IMG/VR virus record: IMGVR_UViG_2713896781_000017
Length of the DNA stretch: 4,847 bases
Reading direction: 5' to 3' (one strand)
DNA from: a virus
Lineage: Duplodnaviria; Heunggongvirae; Uroviricota; Caudoviricetes
In this document: in pieces, positions 1 through 4,847 of the stretch
How the letters are laid out: every line of letters begins with the position of its first letter
Position numbering within the stretch: position 1 is the first letter of the stretch
Program-made: the position numbers and the translations under genes
Notes under the pieces: generated by a model
Told to the model about the DNA's origin: nothing
The model's input: only the letters and a program-made list of their open reading frames with translations
The model's database searches: none

Positions 1-64
1 TTAGTCATCCTGTTTACCTCTTTCTCAGGGAGTTTAGTCTCCAGGATTCCCGGGGCGGTTCAAT

Positions 65-571
65 TTGATTTGCATGACAGTTTCAGGCCTGATCTTTATT
101 TTCCTTTTCTTCTGGTGGCGGGCAGATATTTACAGGGTCACGTTTCTTAATCAGAGTATATCCCACTATTACATTCTGTTTAGCATGGGAATAGCTTTTC
201 TGTTATCTCTGTTTTGGGTTAAGAAGGGGATAGTAAAACAAAGCGGCTGGAAGAGTCTGTCAGCATACCTTAAGGTTTATGCAGGGATGTGCATATTTGC
301 TGGATTTTTTCTGATTATACCCCTTACAACACTAACTTATTTTTTGCCTGGAGAGACATCGTCTTATGTTGCACCGTATCGGTATACTTCCGGTAGTTCA
401 AAAAGTTGTTCTGGAGCTGAGGTGGATGACCCCGATCTACATGAGAATATTCGCATTTGCTATCCGTATGGCAATTATGAGTACGATAATATTATCTATG
501 TTGAAAAGAAAATTAATACATTAGGTGCGGTAGTAACATATGCACAGACCGCGCGTGATGATACTGAATGA
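65..571 (+). CDS. hypothetical small integral membrane protein (three predicted TM helices plus a polar C-terminal domain of about 75 aa); prophage accessory (moron-like) gene
   Basis: Six-frame ORF 65..571. It begins with TTG at 65, preceded by a G-rich stretch GGGGCGG at 52-58; the first ATG is at 74. Three hydrophobic stretches by eye (about residues 4-18, 32-52, 68-94), then a polar tail with two Cys (SKSCSG, RICYPYG). The segment is visibly more AT-rich than the recombination genes to its right and is transcribed opposite to them. No family recognised by eye. Confidence 0.55.
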   Translation: MICMTVSGLIFIFLFFWWRADIYRVTFLNQSISHYYILFSMGIAFLLSLFWVKKGIVKQSGWKSLSAYLKVYAGMCIFAGFFLIIPLTTLTYFLPGETSSYVAPYRYTSGSSKSCSGAEVDDPDLHENIRICYPYGNYEYDNIIYVEKKINTLGAVVTYAQTARDDTE

Positions 572-605
572 GATAGTATATAGCGGGCAAGTTTTAGTTA
601 ATTTA

Positions 606-639
606 TCGAGGTAATATAATTTACCTCGACTCGTTTATT
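606..639 (+). terminator. putative intrinsic terminator downstream of the 65..571 gene
   Basis: Perfect inverted repeat tcgaggtaa (606-614) / ttacctcga (621-629) with loop tataat, followed by ctcgTTTATTc. The T-tract is interrupted and the stem is AT-rich, so this is weak. Confidence 0.3.
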
Positions 640-781
640 CTGGTATTAATATTTCGCTTTACGATCGATTTTTATCTGATGATATCATGCGGTTTTCATA
701 TACTGACTTACTGTCTTTTCTCCGTTAGCGATTTTCTCCTGCTCAGCGATGATTTTATCTTTGGCTTCTAGTTAATTTCGC

Positions 782-1003
782 TCACTTCGAACCTCTCTGT
801 TTACTGATAAGTTCCAGATCCTCCTGGCAACTTGCACAAGTCCGACAACCCTGAACGGCCAGGCGTCTTCGCTCATCTATGGGATCGCCACACTCACAAC
901 AATGAGTGGCAGATATAGCCTGGTGGTTCAGGCGGCGCATTTTTATTGCTGTGTTGCGCTGTAATTCTTCAATTTCTGATGCTGAATCAATGATGTCTGC
1001 CAT
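782..1003 (-). CDS. TraR/DksA-family C4 zinc-finger protein, 73 aa (lambda Orf73-like)
   Basis: ORF 782..1003. The translation contains C-x2-C-x17-C-x2-C (CCEC...GCRTCASC), the spacing seen in F-plasmid TraR, and has the same 73-aa length. In-frame TAA lies immediately upstream of the ATG at 1003. Confidence 0.8.
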   Translation of the reverse strand: MADIIDSASEIEELQRNTAIKMRRLNHQAISATHCCECGDPIDERRRLAVQGCRTCASCQEDLELISKQRGSK

Positions 1004-1028
1004 CTTCCATTAATCCCTGAATTGTTGG

Positions 1029-1057
1029 TTAATACGCTTGAGGGTGAATGCGAACAA
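1029..1057 (-). promoter_or_regulatory. candidate sigma70-like promoter for the TraR-like gene
   Basis: On the minus strand: TTGTTC (plus 1052-1057), a 17-nt spacer, then TATTAA (plus 1029-1034), about 25 nt upstream of the ATG at 1003. The match to consensus is weak. Confidence 0.2.
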
Positions 1058-1082
1058 TAAAAAAGGAGCCTGTAGCTCCCTG
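1058..1082 (-). terminator. putative intrinsic terminator after the 1102..1383 ORF
   Basis: Minus-strand RNA forms GGAGC-UACAG-GCUCC (plus 1065-1079), extendable by G-U/A-U pairs, followed directly by UUUUUUAUUGUU (plus 1064-1053). It lies about 25 nt past the stop at 1102-1104. Confidence 0.45.
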
Positions 1083-1101
1083 ATGATTTTGCTTTTCATG
1101 C

Positions 1102-1383
1102 TCACCGTTCCTTAAAGACGCCGTTTAACATGCCGATCGCCAGGCTTAAATGAGTCGGTGTGAATCCCATCAGCGTTACCGTTTCGCGGTGCTTCTTCAG
1201 TACGCTACGGCAAATGTCATCGACGTTTTTATCCGGAAACTGCTGTCTGGCTTTTTTGATTTCAGAATTAGCCTGACGGGCAATACTGCGAAGGGCGTTT
1301 TCTTGCTGAGGTGTCATTGAACAAGTCCCATGTCGGCAAGCATAAGCACACAGAATATGAAGCCCGCTGCCAGAAAAATGCAT
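1102..1383 (-). CDS. hypothetical protein in the early-left operon (position of lambda orf61); start uncertain (ATG 1383 or internal ATG 1317 giving 71 aa)
   Basis: Six-frame ORF 1102..1383, same strand as and adjacent to orf63. The C-terminal 71 aa (MTPQQENALRSIARQ...) look like a lambdoid early-region small protein. The ATG at 1383 directly follows an in-frame TGA (TGAATG). No convincing Shine-Dalgarno at either start. Confidence 0.5.
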   Translation of the reverse strand: MHFSGSGLHILCAYACRHGTCSMTPQQENALRSIARQANSEIKKARQQFPDKNVDDICRSVLKKHRETVTLMGFTPTHLSLAIGMLNGVFKER

Positions 1384-1393
1384 TCAGTGGTTG

Positions 1394-1585
1394 TCATACC
1401 AGGTCTCTCTCATCTGCTTCTGCTTTCGCCACCATCATTTCCAGCTTTTGCGAAAGGGATGTGGCTAACGTATGAAATTCTTCGTCTGTTTCTACTGGTA
1501 TTGGCACAAACCTGACTCCAATTTGAGCAAGGCTATGTGCCATCTCAATACTCGTTCTTAACTCAACAGGAGATGCTTTGTGCAT
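1394..1585 (-). CDS. lambda Orf63-like small protein (63 aa)
   Basis: ORF 1394..1585; translation [23 protein letters not shown]... matches my memory of lambda orf63. It overlaps orf60a by 28 nt, as in lambda. Confidence 0.8.
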   Translation of the reverse strand: MHKASPVELRTSIEMAHSLAQIGVRFVPIPVETDEEFHTLATSLSQKLEMMVAKAEADERDLV

Positions 1586-1740
1586 ATCGCCTCCCGTTTA
1601 TTATTTATCTCCTCAGCCAGCCGCTGGGCTTTCAGCGGATTTCGGATAACAGAAAGGCCGGGAAATACCCAGCCTCGCTTCGTAACGGAGTAGACGAAAG
1701 TGATCGTGCCTACGCGGATATTATCGTGAGGATGCTTCAT
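1558..1740 (-). CDS. lambda Orf60a-like small protein (60 aa)
   Basis: Track ORF 1558..1746; the likely start is the second Met (ATG 1740..1738), which overlaps the exo stop as ATGA. Translation [31 protein letters not shown]... matches lambda orf60a from memory. Confidence 0.8.
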
Positions 1741-2417
1741 CGCCATTGCTCCCCAAATACAAAACCAATTTCAGCCAGTGCCTCGTCCATTTTTTCGATG
1801 AACTCCGGCACCATCTCGTCAAAACCCGCCATGTACTTTTCATCCCGCTCAACCACGACATAATGCAGGCCTTCACGCTTCATACGCGGGTCATAGTTGG
1901 CAAAGTACCAGGCATCTTTTCGCGTCACCCACATGCTGTACTGCACCTGGGCCATGTAAGCCGACTTTATGGCCTCGAAACCACCGAGCCTGAACTTCAT
2001 GAAATCCCGGGAGGTAAACGGGCATTTCAGCTCAAGGCCGTTGCCGTCACTGCATAAACCATCGGGAGAGCAGGCGGTGCGCATACTTTCGTCGCGATAG
2101 ATGATCGGGGATTCAGTAACATTCACGCCGGAAGTGAATTCAAACAGGGTTCTGGCGTCGTTCTCGTACTGTTTTCCCCAGGCCAGCGCCTTAGCATTAA
2201 CTTCCGGAGCCACACCGGTGCAAACCTCAGCCAGCAGGGTGTGGAAGTAGGACATTTTCATGTCAGGCCACTTCTTTCCTGAGCGGGGCTTTGCTATCAC
2301 GTTGTGAACTTCTGAAGCGGTGATGACGCCGAGCCGTAATTTGTGCCATGCATCATCCCCCTGTTCGACAGCTCTCACGTCGATCCCGGTACGCTGCAGG
2401 ATAATGTCCGGTGTCAT
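1737..2417 (-). CDS. exo: lambda exonuclease (Red-alpha, 5'-3' dsDNA exonuclease), 226 aa
   Basis: ORF 1737..2417; translation [40 protein letters not shown]... is essentially lambda Exo. Its start overlaps the bet stop (tcat at 2414-2417 gives ATGA). Confidence 0.97.
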
Positions 2418-3199
2418 GCTGCCACCTTCTGCTCAGTGGCTTTCTGTTTCAGGAATCCAAGAGCTTTCACTGCTTCGGCCTGTGTCAGTTCTGACGATGC
2501 GCGAATGTCGCGGCGAAATATCTGGGAACAGAGCGGCAATAAGTCGTCATCCCATGTTTTATCCAGGGCGATTAGCAGAGTGTTAATCTCCTGCATGGTT
2601 TCATCGTTAACCGGAGTGATGTCGCGTTCCGGCTGGCGTTCTGCAGTGTATGCAGTATTTTCGACAATGCGCTCGGCTTCATCCTTGTCATAGATACCAG
2701 CAAATCCGAAGGCCAGACGGGCACACTGAATCATGGCTTTATGCCGTAACATCCGTTTAGGATGCGACTGCCACGGCCCCGTGATTTCTCTGCCTTCGCG
2801 GGTTTTGAATGGTTCGCGGCGGCATTCATCCATCCATTCGGTAACGCAGATCGGATGATTACGGTCCTTGCGGTAAATCCGGCATGTACAGGATTCATTG
2901 TCCTGCTCAAAGTCCATGCCATCAAACTGCTGGTTTTCATTGATGATGCGGGACCAGCCATCAACGCCCACCACCGGAACGATGCCGTTCTGCTTATCAG
3001 GGAAGGCGTAAATTTCTTTCGTCCACGGATTAAGGCCGTACTGGTTGGCGACGATCAACAATGCGATGAACTGCGCATCGCTGGCATCGCCTTTAAATGC
3101 CGTCTGGCGAAGAGTGGTGATCAGTTCCTGTGGGTCGACAGAATCCATGCCGACACGTTCAGCCAGCTTCCCTGCCAGCGTTGCGAGTGCTGTACTCAT
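2414..3199 (-). CDS. bet: Red-beta single-strand annealing protein (Bet), 261 aa
   Basis: ORF 2414..3199; translation [37 protein letters not shown]... is essentially lambda Bet. AGAGG Shine-Dalgarno upstream of the ATG at 3199. Confidence 0.97.
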
Positions 3200-3204
3200 C
3201 CGTT

Positions 3205-3621
3205 TTATACCTCTGAATCAATATCAACCTGATGGTGAGCAATGGTTTCAACCATGTACCGGATGTGTTCTGCCATGCGCTCCTGAAACTCAACATCGTC
3301 ATCAAACGCACGGGTAATGGCTTTTTTGCTGGCCCCGTGGCGTTGCAAATGACCGATGCATAGCGATTCAAACAGGTGCTGGGGCAGGCCTTTTTCCATG
3401 TCGTCTGCCAGTTCTGCCTCTTTCTCTTCACGGGCTATCTGCTGGTAGTGACGCGCCCAGCTCTGAGCCTCAAGACGATCCTGAATGTAATAAGCGTTCA
3501 TGGCCGAACTCCTGAAATAGCTGTGAAAATATCGCCCGCGAAATGCCGGGCTGATTAGGAAAACAGGAAAGGGGGTTAGTGAATGCTTTTGCTTGATCTC
3601 AGTTTCAGTATTAATATCCAT
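3205..3621 (-). CDS. gam: Gam, RecBCD inhibitor (138-aa long form; internal start at 3501 would give the 98-aa short form)
   Basis: ORF 3205..3621; translation [32 protein letters not shown]... is lambda Gam. The internal Met41 (ATG 3501..3499) is preceded by AGGAG, whereas the ATG at 3621 has no obvious Shine-Dalgarno. Confidence 0.95.
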
Positions 3622-3719
3622 TTTTTATAAGCGTCGACGGCCTCACGAAACATCTTTTCATCGCCAATAAAAGTGGCGATAGTGAATTTAGTCTGGATAG
3701 CCATAATTGTTTGATCCAT
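3576..3719 (-). CDS. kil: Kil, host cell-division (FtsZ) inhibitor, 47 aa
   Basis: Internal Met of the 3576..3845 track ORF: [47 protein letters not shown] matches lambda Kil. AGGAG sits 9 nt upstream of the ATG at 3719. It overlaps the cIII 3' end and the gam 5' end, as in lambda. Confidence 0.9.
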
Positions 3720-3852
3720 TTTTTGGGACTCCTGGCTGATTAAGTATGTCGATAAGGCGTTTCCATCCGTCACGTAATTTACGGGTGATTCGTTCAAGTA
3801 AAGATTCGGAAGGGCAGCCAGCAACAGGCCACCCTGCAATGGCATATTGCAT
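3688..3852 (-). CDS. cIII: cIII, inhibitor of FtsH-mediated cII degradation, 54 aa
   Basis: Not in the track (below its size cutoff). Manual translation of the minus strand from ATG 3852..3850 gives [54 protein letters not shown], ending at TAA 3690..3688. AAGGAG lies 6 nt upstream. Confidence 0.9.
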   Translation of the reverse strand: MQYAIAGWPVAGCPSESLLERITRKLRDGWKRLIDILNQPGVPKNGSNNYGYPD

Positions 3853-3900
3853 GGTGTGCTCCTTATTTATACATAACGAAAAACGCCTCGAGTGAAGCGT
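3853..3900 (-). promoter_or_regulatory. cIII leader: Shine-Dalgarno plus upstream stem-loop with U-tract (terminator-like; possible translational-control structure)
   Basis: Minus-strand RNA: 7-bp stem ACGCUUC/GAGGCGU with loop ACUC (plus 3883-3900), then UUUU (plus 3879-3882), then AAGGAG (plus 3859-3864) and the ATG. Confidence 0.4.
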
Positions 3901-3924
3901 AATTGGTATGCGGTAACGCCGCGC

Positions 3925-4079
3925 TCAGGCGGCCTTGATAGTCATATCATCTGAATCAAATATTTCTGATGTATCGATATCGGTAATTCTTATTCCTTCA
4001 CTACCATCCATTGGAGGCCATCCTTCCTGACCATTTCCATCATTCCAGTCGAACTCACACACAACACCATATGCATTTA
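3925..4079 (-). pseudogene. ea10: ea10 3' remnant (last ~51 codons), truncated by IS1 insertion
   Basis: Minus-strand translation from the IS1 boundary reads ...NAYGVVCEFDWNDGNGQEGWPPMDGSEGIRITDIDTSEIFDSDDMTIKAA then TGA (3927..3925), matching my memory of the lambda Ea10 C-terminus. The 5' part of the gene is missing and IS1 begins at 4080. Confidence 0.75.
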
Positions 4080-4102
4080 GGTGATGCTGCCAACTTACTG
4101 AT
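4080..4102. repeat. IS1 left terminal inverted repeat
   Basis: GGTGATGCTGCCAACTTACTGAT; imperfect inverse match to 4825-4847. Confidence 0.85.
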
Positions 4103-4134
4103 TTAGTGTATGATGGTGTTTTTGAGGTGCTCCA

Positions 4135-4410
4135 GTGGCTTCTGTTTCTATCAGCTGTCCCTCCTGTTCAGCTACTGACGGGGTGGTGCGTAACGGCAAA
4201 AGCACTGCCGGACATCAGCGCTATCTCTGCTCTCACTGCCGTAAAACATGGCAACTGCAGTTCACTTACACCGCTTCTCAACCCGGTACGCACCAGAAAA
4301 TCATTGATATGGCCATGAATGGCGTTGGATGCCGGGCAACCGCCCGCATTATGGGCGTTGGCCTCAACACGATTTTCCGCCATTTAAAAAACTCAGGCCG
4401 CAGTCGGTAA
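4135..4410 (+). CDS. insA: IS1 InsA (transposition repressor / DNA-binding N-terminal part of the transposase), 91 aa
   Basis: ORF 4135..4410; translation [40 protein letters not shown]... is IS1 InsA with its zinc-finger Cys motif. Confidence 0.95.
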
Positions 4411-4832
4411 CCTCGCGCATACAGCAGGGCAGTGACGTCATCGTCTGCGCGGAAATGGACGAACAGTGGGGCTATGTCGGGGCTAAATCGCGCCAGCGCT
4501 GGCTGTTTTACGCGTATGACAGGCTCCGGAAGATGGTTGTTGCGCACGTATTCGGTGAACGCACTATGGCGACGCTGGGGCGTCTTATGAGCCTGCTGTC
4601 ACCCTTTGACGTGGTGATATGGATGACGGATGGCTGGCCGCTGTATGAATCCCGCCTGAAGGGAAAGCTGCACGTAATCAGCAAGCGATATACGCAGCGA
4701 ATTGAGCGGCATAACCTGAATCTGAGGCAGCACCTGGCACGGCTGGGACGGAAGTCGCTGTCGTTCTCAAAATCGGTGGAGCTGCATGACAAAGTCATCG
4801 GGCATTATCTGAACATAAAACACTATCAATAA
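4329..4832 (+). CDS. insB: IS1 InsB reading frame (167 aa as conventionally annotated; expressed as the InsAB' fusion transposase by -1 frameshifting)
   Basis: ORF 4329..4832 in the -1 frame relative to insA; translation ...[72 protein letters not shown] is IS1 InsB. Confidence 0.9.
4384..4394 (+). other. IS1 programmed -1 ribosomal frameshift site (A6C slippery motif)
   Basis: TTAAAAAACTC at 4384-4394, near the end of insA and inside the insA/insB overlap; the insB frame is -1 relative to insA. Confidence 0.8.
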
Positions 4833-4847
4833 GTTGGAGTCATTACC
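4825..4847. repeat. IS1 right terminal inverted repeat
   Basis: ATCAATAAGTTGGAGTCATTACC; reverse complement GGTAATGACTCCAACTTATTGAT resembles the left repeat. Confidence 0.85.

Follow-up and report, generated by a model that had tools for sequence, protein, structure and literature searches.

The stretch of DNA analyzed here (4847 bp, hereafter the window) is the left (pL) arm of a lambdoid prophage and constitutes an entire assembly contig (GCA_001309835.1 LEAC01000118.1; identical to contig L015). It is a repeat-bounded fragment, with IS629 at the left and IS1 at the right, the latter inserted in ea10 and extending from ~4083 to the right end. Between these elements, window positions 770-4082 matched lambda 30380-33693 at 97.5% identity by blastn. 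The minus strand carries a TraR/DksA zinc-finger open reading frame (ORF; 782-1003), a small hypothetical gene, orf63 (DUF1382), orf60a (DUF1317), exo, bet, gam, kil and cIII. The 73-aa TraR/DksA ORF is intact, and the lambda reference record has no annotation for the same ORF; a cIII thermoregulator RNA element lies at 3807-3865. Leftward of position 770 the synteny with lambda breaks, and the segment found there stands where lambda has ea22, as a first-pass annotation made from the sequence had noticed. The left limit of lambda homology, which is also the right limit of the replaced segment, falls 16 nt inside ea22 (annotated at lambda 29847-30395), of which the first five codons remain as a remnant at 770-785 on the minus strand, identified by blastn against lambda. 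Since the homology begins within ea22, the segment is a cassette that replaces ea22/ea8.5.

The replaced segment contains a plus-strand ORF at 65-571, which is indeed convergent with the pL operon, whose genes lie on the minus strand. This ORF has 168 codons counted from a TTG, or 165 from an ATG at position 74, and it had first been described as a whole gene for a protein of ~165 aa. That description did not hold: the real gene has 176 codons for amino acids and is split by IS629 after codon 8. Window positions 1-62 are the left end of IS629 (IS3 family; minus strand) and comprise its terminal inverted repeat, TGAACCGCCCCGG..., together with the beginning of orfA, whose transcription runs leftwards and leaves the window; in phage and E. 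coli records, these positions matched the ends of IS629/IS3 transposases at 98.5-100%. The ATT at 63-65 is the right-hand copy of the 3-bp target-site duplication from the IS629 insertion, and uninterrupted copies of the gene match the window from position 63 onward. A full IS629 of 1310 bp, at positions 6680-7989 of a 1-Mb contig from the same lineage (L013), interrupts the gene after codon 8, between MKKDSYPY and L, and is flanked by the 3-bp ATT duplication. The left flank in this contig ends in ...CCTTATT and the right flank begins with ATTTGATTTGC, the uninterrupted sequence being CCTTATTTGATTTGC, so that the halves of the gene read ...ATGAAAAAAGATTCGTATCCTTATT on one side of the element and ATTTGATTTGCATGACAG... 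on the other.

The ORF list, the alignment of homologues and the IS junction identify window positions 65-571 (plus strand) as the 3' part of the interrupted gene, codons 9-176 plus the stop codon, which amounts to the downstream 95% of it. As the first eight codons lie across IS629, the apparent TTG start at 65 is an artefact: it is the codon for Leu9 in the intact protein. The element separates it, by ~1.3 kb, from the start codon, ribosome site and promoter region, and transcription of the IS runs in the opposite direction. Without a start codon, ribosome site and promoter of its own, and with the transposase gene pointing away, the window allele is most probably a pseudogene, and the native protein is almost certainly not expressed from it. 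Owing to this insertional inactivation, the window says nothing about the phenotype of this particular strain. More generally, ORF calls that abut IS fragments at contig ends need checking.

The intact gene, as in phage 434, encodes a protein of 176 aa that begins MKKDSYPYLICMT... Intact copies are annotated at greater lengths, 200 aa by PGAP and, counting from a TTG, 188 aa for phage 434. Homologues at 42-78% identity all begin at an internal MKK(D/Y)SYP start, and these diverged proteins identify the ATG that gives 176 aa as the true start. The gene is already in the databases and is not new there; its products are named only "hypothetical", "transmembrane" or "putative membrane protein", the last being the phage 434 entry. 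The region spanning window positions 63-800 was found at a coverage of at least 80% in 908 of 5426 complete E. coli genomes, and among sequenced phages only in 434, 2B8 and mEp332. Literature searches on the accession, on mEp332 and on exclusion by 434 lysogens retrieved no report on the gene and no published anti-phage test of it.

The cassette differs in base composition from its surroundings. The GC content is 0.38-0.42 over window positions 1-600 versus 0.50-0.565 over exo and bet, in line with the initial description of the gene as AT-rich. At its 3' end, pattern scanning and RNA folding revealed a terminator-like hairpin with a 9-bp stem and a 6-nt loop, followed by a T-rich tail (606-639, plus strand); the hairpin proper, which had also been noticed at the outset, occupies 606-629 and is followed by CTCGTTTATT. 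This putative terminator falls within DNA that is common to a cassette borne by a P2-like prophage (L003, positions 3842-4616). The lambdoid and P2-borne E. coli cassettes share 76% DNA identity from 137 nt before the ATG to ~107 nt past the stop codon.

A consensus sigma-70 scan upstream of the gene yielded no convincing site. An extended -10-like element, TGnTAA(A/G/T)TT, lies 39-47 nt before the ATG and is kept in the lambdoid, P2-like and Cedecea copies, which makes it the best candidate for a promoter, although an unproven one; in the window allele, IS629 separates this candidate promoter region from the gene. Three TTGTGCA direct repeats with 10-bp spacing are also present upstream of the gene in both the lambdoid and the P2 contexts. 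The phage 434 record carries a CII-site annotation, but a CII-dependent promoter is unlikely: when compared with the layout of lambda pRE, the TTGY repeats are not at a pRE-type distance from any -10 element, and they are best conserved in P2-like phages, which to our knowledge have no CII.

These features are those of a moron, an independent transcription unit added to a phage genome (Juhala et al. 2000, summarised in PMC3594210). The cassette is present in 434-type prophages where lambda has ea8.5/ea22, between flanks that are 97.5% identical from position 770 rightwards; its GC content deviates, and a predicted hairpin with a T-rich tail would serve as its own terminator. Judging by the DNA shared between the two types of prophage, the promoter region, gene and terminator move as one unit. 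An ea22-like pseudogene fragment adjoins the cassette inside a P2-like prophage and, together with the common cassette DNA, points to transfer between lambdoid and P2-like phages.

Hydropathy analysis of the protein agreed with the early description of three hydrophobic helices and a polar, Cys-containing C-terminal part, the latter being net-acidic. Transmembrane (TM) helix 1 covers residues 9-26 (window 65-118; hydropathy 8-26, AlphaFold2 helix 5-29), TM helix 2 residues 42-60 (164-220; AlphaFold2 helix 38-61) and TM helix 3 residues 79-102 (275-346; AlphaFold2 helix 70-101), all encoded on the plus strand, as are the features that follow. The loop between the second and third helices (residues 61-78; 221-274) carries five K/R and lacks D/E, and prediction places it in the cytoplasm. 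Residues 103-170 (347-550) form a predicted periplasmic five-stranded beta domain, as indicated by AlphaFold2, conservation and alignments, and the C-terminal 74 residues hold 12 D/E and 6 K/R, for a net charge of -6. According to the positive-inside rule, the basic TM2-TM3 loop predicts an N-in/C-out topology. The protein is thus predicted to be a three-TM inner-membrane protein with a cytoplasmic N-terminus and a periplasmic C-terminal domain.

The AlphaFold2 model of the full protein, built on a 21-sequence alignment, had a pLDDT of 86 and a pTM of 0.72, with three long helices and a five-stranded beta domain at residues 105-171; the C-terminal domain modelled alone reached a pLDDT of 90. 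A short strand in the TM1-TM2 loop, at a conserved TFL, is predicted to pack against the C-terminal beta domain. This domain is the most conserved region of the family in a 39-member alignment reaching down to 17% identity, in which only C123, G125, C140 and G162 are conserved at 95% or more. The two invariant cysteines, Cys123 (407-409) and Cys140 (458-460), lie 17 residues apart and, being invariant within an extracytoplasmic domain, probably form a disulfide. Cys11 follows Y-L-I and is not kept in the homologues; the protein has no lipobox. The beta domain superposes weakly on 3npp (DUF1093, B. subtilis; DUF1093/YxeA-like) and on cold-shock and OB-fold domains. There is firm support for reading window positions 65-571 as a copy, disrupted by IS629, of a moron gene whose product has three TM helices and an extracytoplasmic beta domain.

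We searched for relatives of this protein in sequence, family and structure databases. Scans of both the 200-aa and the 176-aa forms against Pfam, NCBIfam and PADLOC gave no usable match, a Pfam scan of all 21 aligned family members gave none, and PADLOC-DB v2.0.0 returned no defence family at E values up to 1. The sole family match was PHROG 1416, of "unknown function", which covers the last 88 residues (113-200) of the 200-aa form, and the first-pass annotation was therefore right to regard the membrane protein as belonging to no recognized family. The family profile gave no PDB sequence match below E = 0.4, and Foldseek against BFVD gave none at E values up to 0.001. Searching 1.84 billion representative proteins with the profile produced 62 matches only. 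We dismissed two of these candidates, P0124 (3074 aa) and P0131 (706 aa), as non-homologous, being repetitive proteins that match over a stretch of ~35 residues. A common truncated form of the protein, P0132, has 112 aa. Among the homologues examined, all those with a named organism are from Enterobacteriaceae, apart from one evidently misbinned contig: a "Candidatus Nanosynbacter" MAG contig carries the same E. coli prophage segment at 99% identity. The protein belongs to a small uncharacterised family of predicted enterobacterial inner-membrane proteins.

Members of the family were found in three genomic contexts. One is that of the window, in E. coli and Shigella lambdoid prophages, where the gene lies between xis and the recombination genes of pL; homologues in the same slot of other lambdoid prophages had been suggested as a check on the first-pass annotation. 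Another is in P2-like prophages, between the portal gene gpQ and the replication gene gpA, where we found five diverged lineages: E. coli (78% identity), Salmonella (70% and 58%), E. hormaechei (57%) and K. michiganensis (55%). This position holds for the homologues P0039, P0044, P0048, P0052 and P0055, whereas the window copy is in a lambdoid prophage instead. In the E. hormaechei (L027) and one Salmonella (L005) example, gene calling placed nothing but the homologue between the portal gene and the first leftward gene ahead of gpA. The third context comprises non-prophage chromosomal sites in Enterobacter, Citrobacter, Klebsiella, Cedecea and Pseudescherichia. One syntenic locus is common to seven Enterobacter species; there the gene is flanked by a LysR gene on one side and by GGDEF and AI-2E transporter genes on the other, with copies that are 64-97% identical, and the Citrobacter chromosomal copy adjoins a histidine-kinase gene and the Ter-protein gene tus. 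Thus, the family is not prophage-specific.

The gpA-gpQ locus of P2-like phages, at which P2 itself carries old and tin, has been described as a defence hotspot (PMC9122126, PMC13586616). Homologues of the moron gene reside at exactly that locus at 55-78% identity, but the protein is related neither to Old (ATPase-TOPRIM) nor to Tin and has no PADLOC match. Of the neighbours of the homologues in the P2 hotspot that were scanned with PADLOC, none matched a known defence gene. The occupation of this hotspot strengthens the idea of an exclusion or defence role; as support for exclusion it is guilt by association.

We compared the protein with known exclusion proteins. [quoted passage not shown] Both proteins are prophage-encoded and about 160-176 aa long, with three predicted TM helices; SieA is expressed from its own promoter, and the gene studied here has a candidate promoter. 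The protein would fit the SieA type in predicted size and number of helices (176 aa, three TM) but not in sequence: hhalign against SieA gave a probability of 0.1%, and the conserved SieA motif FxRYPxEAxxFNK, predicted to be cytoplasmic (PMC10883804), is absent. SieA, for its part, has neither the 70-residue periplasmic beta domain nor the conserved Cys pair that are predicted here, and its gene is located between genes 16 and 9 of P22-like phages. Since the SieA motif is predicted to be cytoplasmic and SieA has no periplasmic domain, the resemblance is one of functional architecture and is no sign of homology.

HK97 gp15 is a moron-encoded inner-membrane exclusion protein that blocks genome entry without masking receptors, and its relatives are mostly chromosomal YebO proteins (PMC3594210). 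It resembles the protein described here in being a small inner-membrane protein encoded by a moron of deviant GC content, and in having relatives that are confined to Enterobacteriaceae, many of them chromosomal and outside prophages. The HK97 moron has its own promoter and terminator, to which a candidate promoter and a predicted terminator correspond here. It differs in being a small YebO-related protein encoded in the tail operon (PMC3594210), whereas no Pfam family, YebO included, matches our protein. As an evolutionary parallel, gp15 offers the best analogy for the moron gene.

SieB, T4 Imm, Cor and Llp are likewise small, envelope-associated phage or prophage proteins that exclude other phages, a role for which our protein is only a candidate. 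The first-pass annotation could place it in none of these four families, and neither could we: hhalign against lambda SieB gave a probability of 0.09%, no Pfam family matched, and Cor and Llp are outer-membrane lipoproteins, whereas the protein here has no lipobox. That annotation had also named a holin or lysis protein as an identity that would speak against exclusion. No holin or lysis family was matched in Pfam or PHROG, and the gene is not located in a lysis cassette, as it is found either between xis and exo or within the P2 hotspot and never adjoins an endolysin gene in the contexts examined.

What, then, might the protein do? The moron organisation, the repeated residence in exclusion and defence slots, and the precedents of gp15 and SieA favor exclusion at the genome-entry step. 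The reading we prefer, with a probability of roughly 0.4, is that the prophage copies are host envelope genes that may have been captured and kept as periplasm-facing superinfection-exclusion factors. In the lysogen, expression would come from the gene's own promoter, and the periplasmic domain, anchored in the inner membrane, would interfere with a periplasmic or inner-membrane step in the delivery of an incoming phage genome. Such a block would resemble those of P22 SieA and HK97 gp15, leaving outer-membrane receptors untouched.

The same chromosomal copies that suggest a host origin fit equally well with a rival explanation that is almost as probable, in which the protein is an ordinary enterobacterial inner-membrane or periplasmic envelope protein, for example in stress, signalling or transport, that prophages carry as a lysogenic-conversion or fitness gene rather than for exclusion. 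One syntenic chromosomal locus carries the gene in seven Enterobacter species, the Citrobacter, Klebsiella, Cedecea and Pseudescherichia copies are also chromosomal and non-prophage, PADLOC has no match, and the fold is weakly like that of small membrane-anchored or periplasmic beta-barrel proteins such as DUF1093/YxeA. However, the prophage copies are found time and again in slots whose usual cargo serves exclusion and defence (PMC9122126), no metabolic or regulatory partner is conserved across genera, and a chromosomal origin is compatible with a derived anti-phage role, as HK97 gp15 and YebO illustrate (PMC3594210). Given the syntenic chromosomal orthologues, the lack of a match in the defence database and the lack of a functional experiment, an ordinary envelope function is almost as likely as exclusion.

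Two further alternatives are less probable. Hotspot systems often use TM proteins as suicide effectors (PMC9122126), and a single gene for three TM helices that resides in the P2 hotspot could encode an abortive-infection membrane effector, RexB-like or another single-gene TM effector, that depolarises or permeabilises the membrane once infection is sensed. We find this unlikely, as conservation peaks in the periplasmic domain and not in the helices, no conserved cytoplasmic sensor domain or partner gene was seen in the contexts examined, and the stable chromosomal orthologues argue against a toxic effector. With the periplasmic domain being the most conserved, a binding or blocking role fits better than a pore-forming suicide effector. 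The most improbable of the readings is that the protein confers immunity or protection not against phages but against a periplasm-acting toxin, namely a bacteriocin such as a colicin, or a T6SS/CDI effector. Immunity to pore-forming colicins is conferred by small inner-membrane proteins with 3-4 TM helices, an architecture with which the predicted three-TM protein and its periplasm-facing domain can be compared. Another moron protein, Cor, also protects against colicin M (PMC3594210). No toxin gene adjoins the gene in any context examined, however, and no Pfam immunity family matched.

A more specific proposal, that these proteins make up a new and structurally distinct superinfection-exclusion family, with a three-TM anchor, a disulfide-bonded periplasmic beta domain, an origin as a captured chromosomal gene of Enterobacteriaceae and a cassette that shuttles between lambda-like and P2-like phages, is rather unlikely as a whole. 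If exclusion is true, the few inner-membrane proteins that block injection (SieA, gp15, Imm) would be joined by one with an unrelated fold, and a gene that is unannotated in the classical phage 434, and that hundreds of pathogenic E. coli and Shigella genomes carry, would gain a function. The gene would also offer a clean case of a host-derived cassette exchanged between lambdoid and P2-like prophages. By the region-level count, the intact gene is carried by phage 434 and by about one-sixth of complete E. coli genomes.

Where the intact three-TM membrane protein gene is borne by P2-like prophages, it is preceded by three direct TTGTGCA repeats at a spacing of exactly 10 bp, positioned at ATG-105, -95 and -85 in L026 and in the P2-like loci of Salmonella (L005) and E. 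hormaechei (L027). In the lambdoid copy of the cassette, the repeats ahead of the intact gene (L003 3874-3900) are degenerate, reading TTTACGCA, TTTGTGTA and ATTGTGCA. The corresponding site in the window's own lineage lies at about 6551-6577 of the 1-Mb contig L013, to the left of IS629. Part of the repeat region is annotated as a CII consensus site in phage 434, but P2-like phages are not known to have CII. The repeats could form a binding array of the response-regulator or phage-activator type. The phage 434 annotation also places a 56-aa "putative membrane protein" on the plus strand just 5' of the gene, in the same orientation (L003/L001 3733-3903). This ORF is unlikely to be a genuine partner gene, because its DNA aligns to the P2-borne copy over a short piece only (L003 3811-3903), PGAP does not call it and it has no family match.

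In the P2-like prophage of E. coli 2011C-4251, a frameshifted ea22-like fragment (L030 5785-6155) lies directly 3' of the cassette within the gpQ-gpA hotspot, a trace left by lambdoid and P2-like phages exchanging DNA. In the K. michiganensis P2-like prophage, the hotspot neighbors of the homologue (L023 2281-5623) are a 790-aa protein, which matches AAA_16 weakly, and its 279-aa partner. Neither protein had a match in PADLOC, and the pair may constitute an undescribed two-gene defense system.

A 112-aa form of the membrane protein, P0132, which corresponds to residues 65-176 only (TM3 and the C-terminal domain), was found on at least 1000 contigs; the P2/ea22-associated variant is very commonly annotated in this form in E. 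coli. These short forms may reflect truncated genes, frameshifts or miscalled start sites. As with P0132, the PHROG 1416 model (90 positions) covers the C-terminal part of the protein alone. The gene was also found at 99% identity, together with lambda-type exo/bet, on a 3561-bp contig binned as "Candidatus Nanosynbacter sp." (JARKOR010000073.1). This contig almost certainly comes from an E. coli prophage and was wrongly assigned to a Patescibacteria MAG.

Within the window, a minus-strand 73-aa ORF with a TraR/DksA C4 zinc finger (782-1003; Pfam E 7.7e-9) is intact, as it is in the lambda reference (L028 2893-3114), for which the NC_001416 record lists no CDS between ea22 and orf61. The minus-strand gene at 1102-1383 is a single 93-codon frame (called as 71 aa), whereas its lambda counterpart (L028 3213-3525) comprises orf61 and a separate 60-codon frame, which suggests that lambda and this prophage differ by a frameshift in this small gene. 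The cIII thermoregulator RNA element Lambda_thermo (3807-3865, minus strand; Rfam, 88.5 bits) is positioned as expected, upstream of cIII. Homology to lambda ends within ea10 at position 4082 (lambda 33693), where a plus-strand IS1 carrying the InsA/InsB frames is inserted (about 4083-4847). With IS1 at one end and IS629 at the other, the assembly contig is therefore only 4847 bp long.
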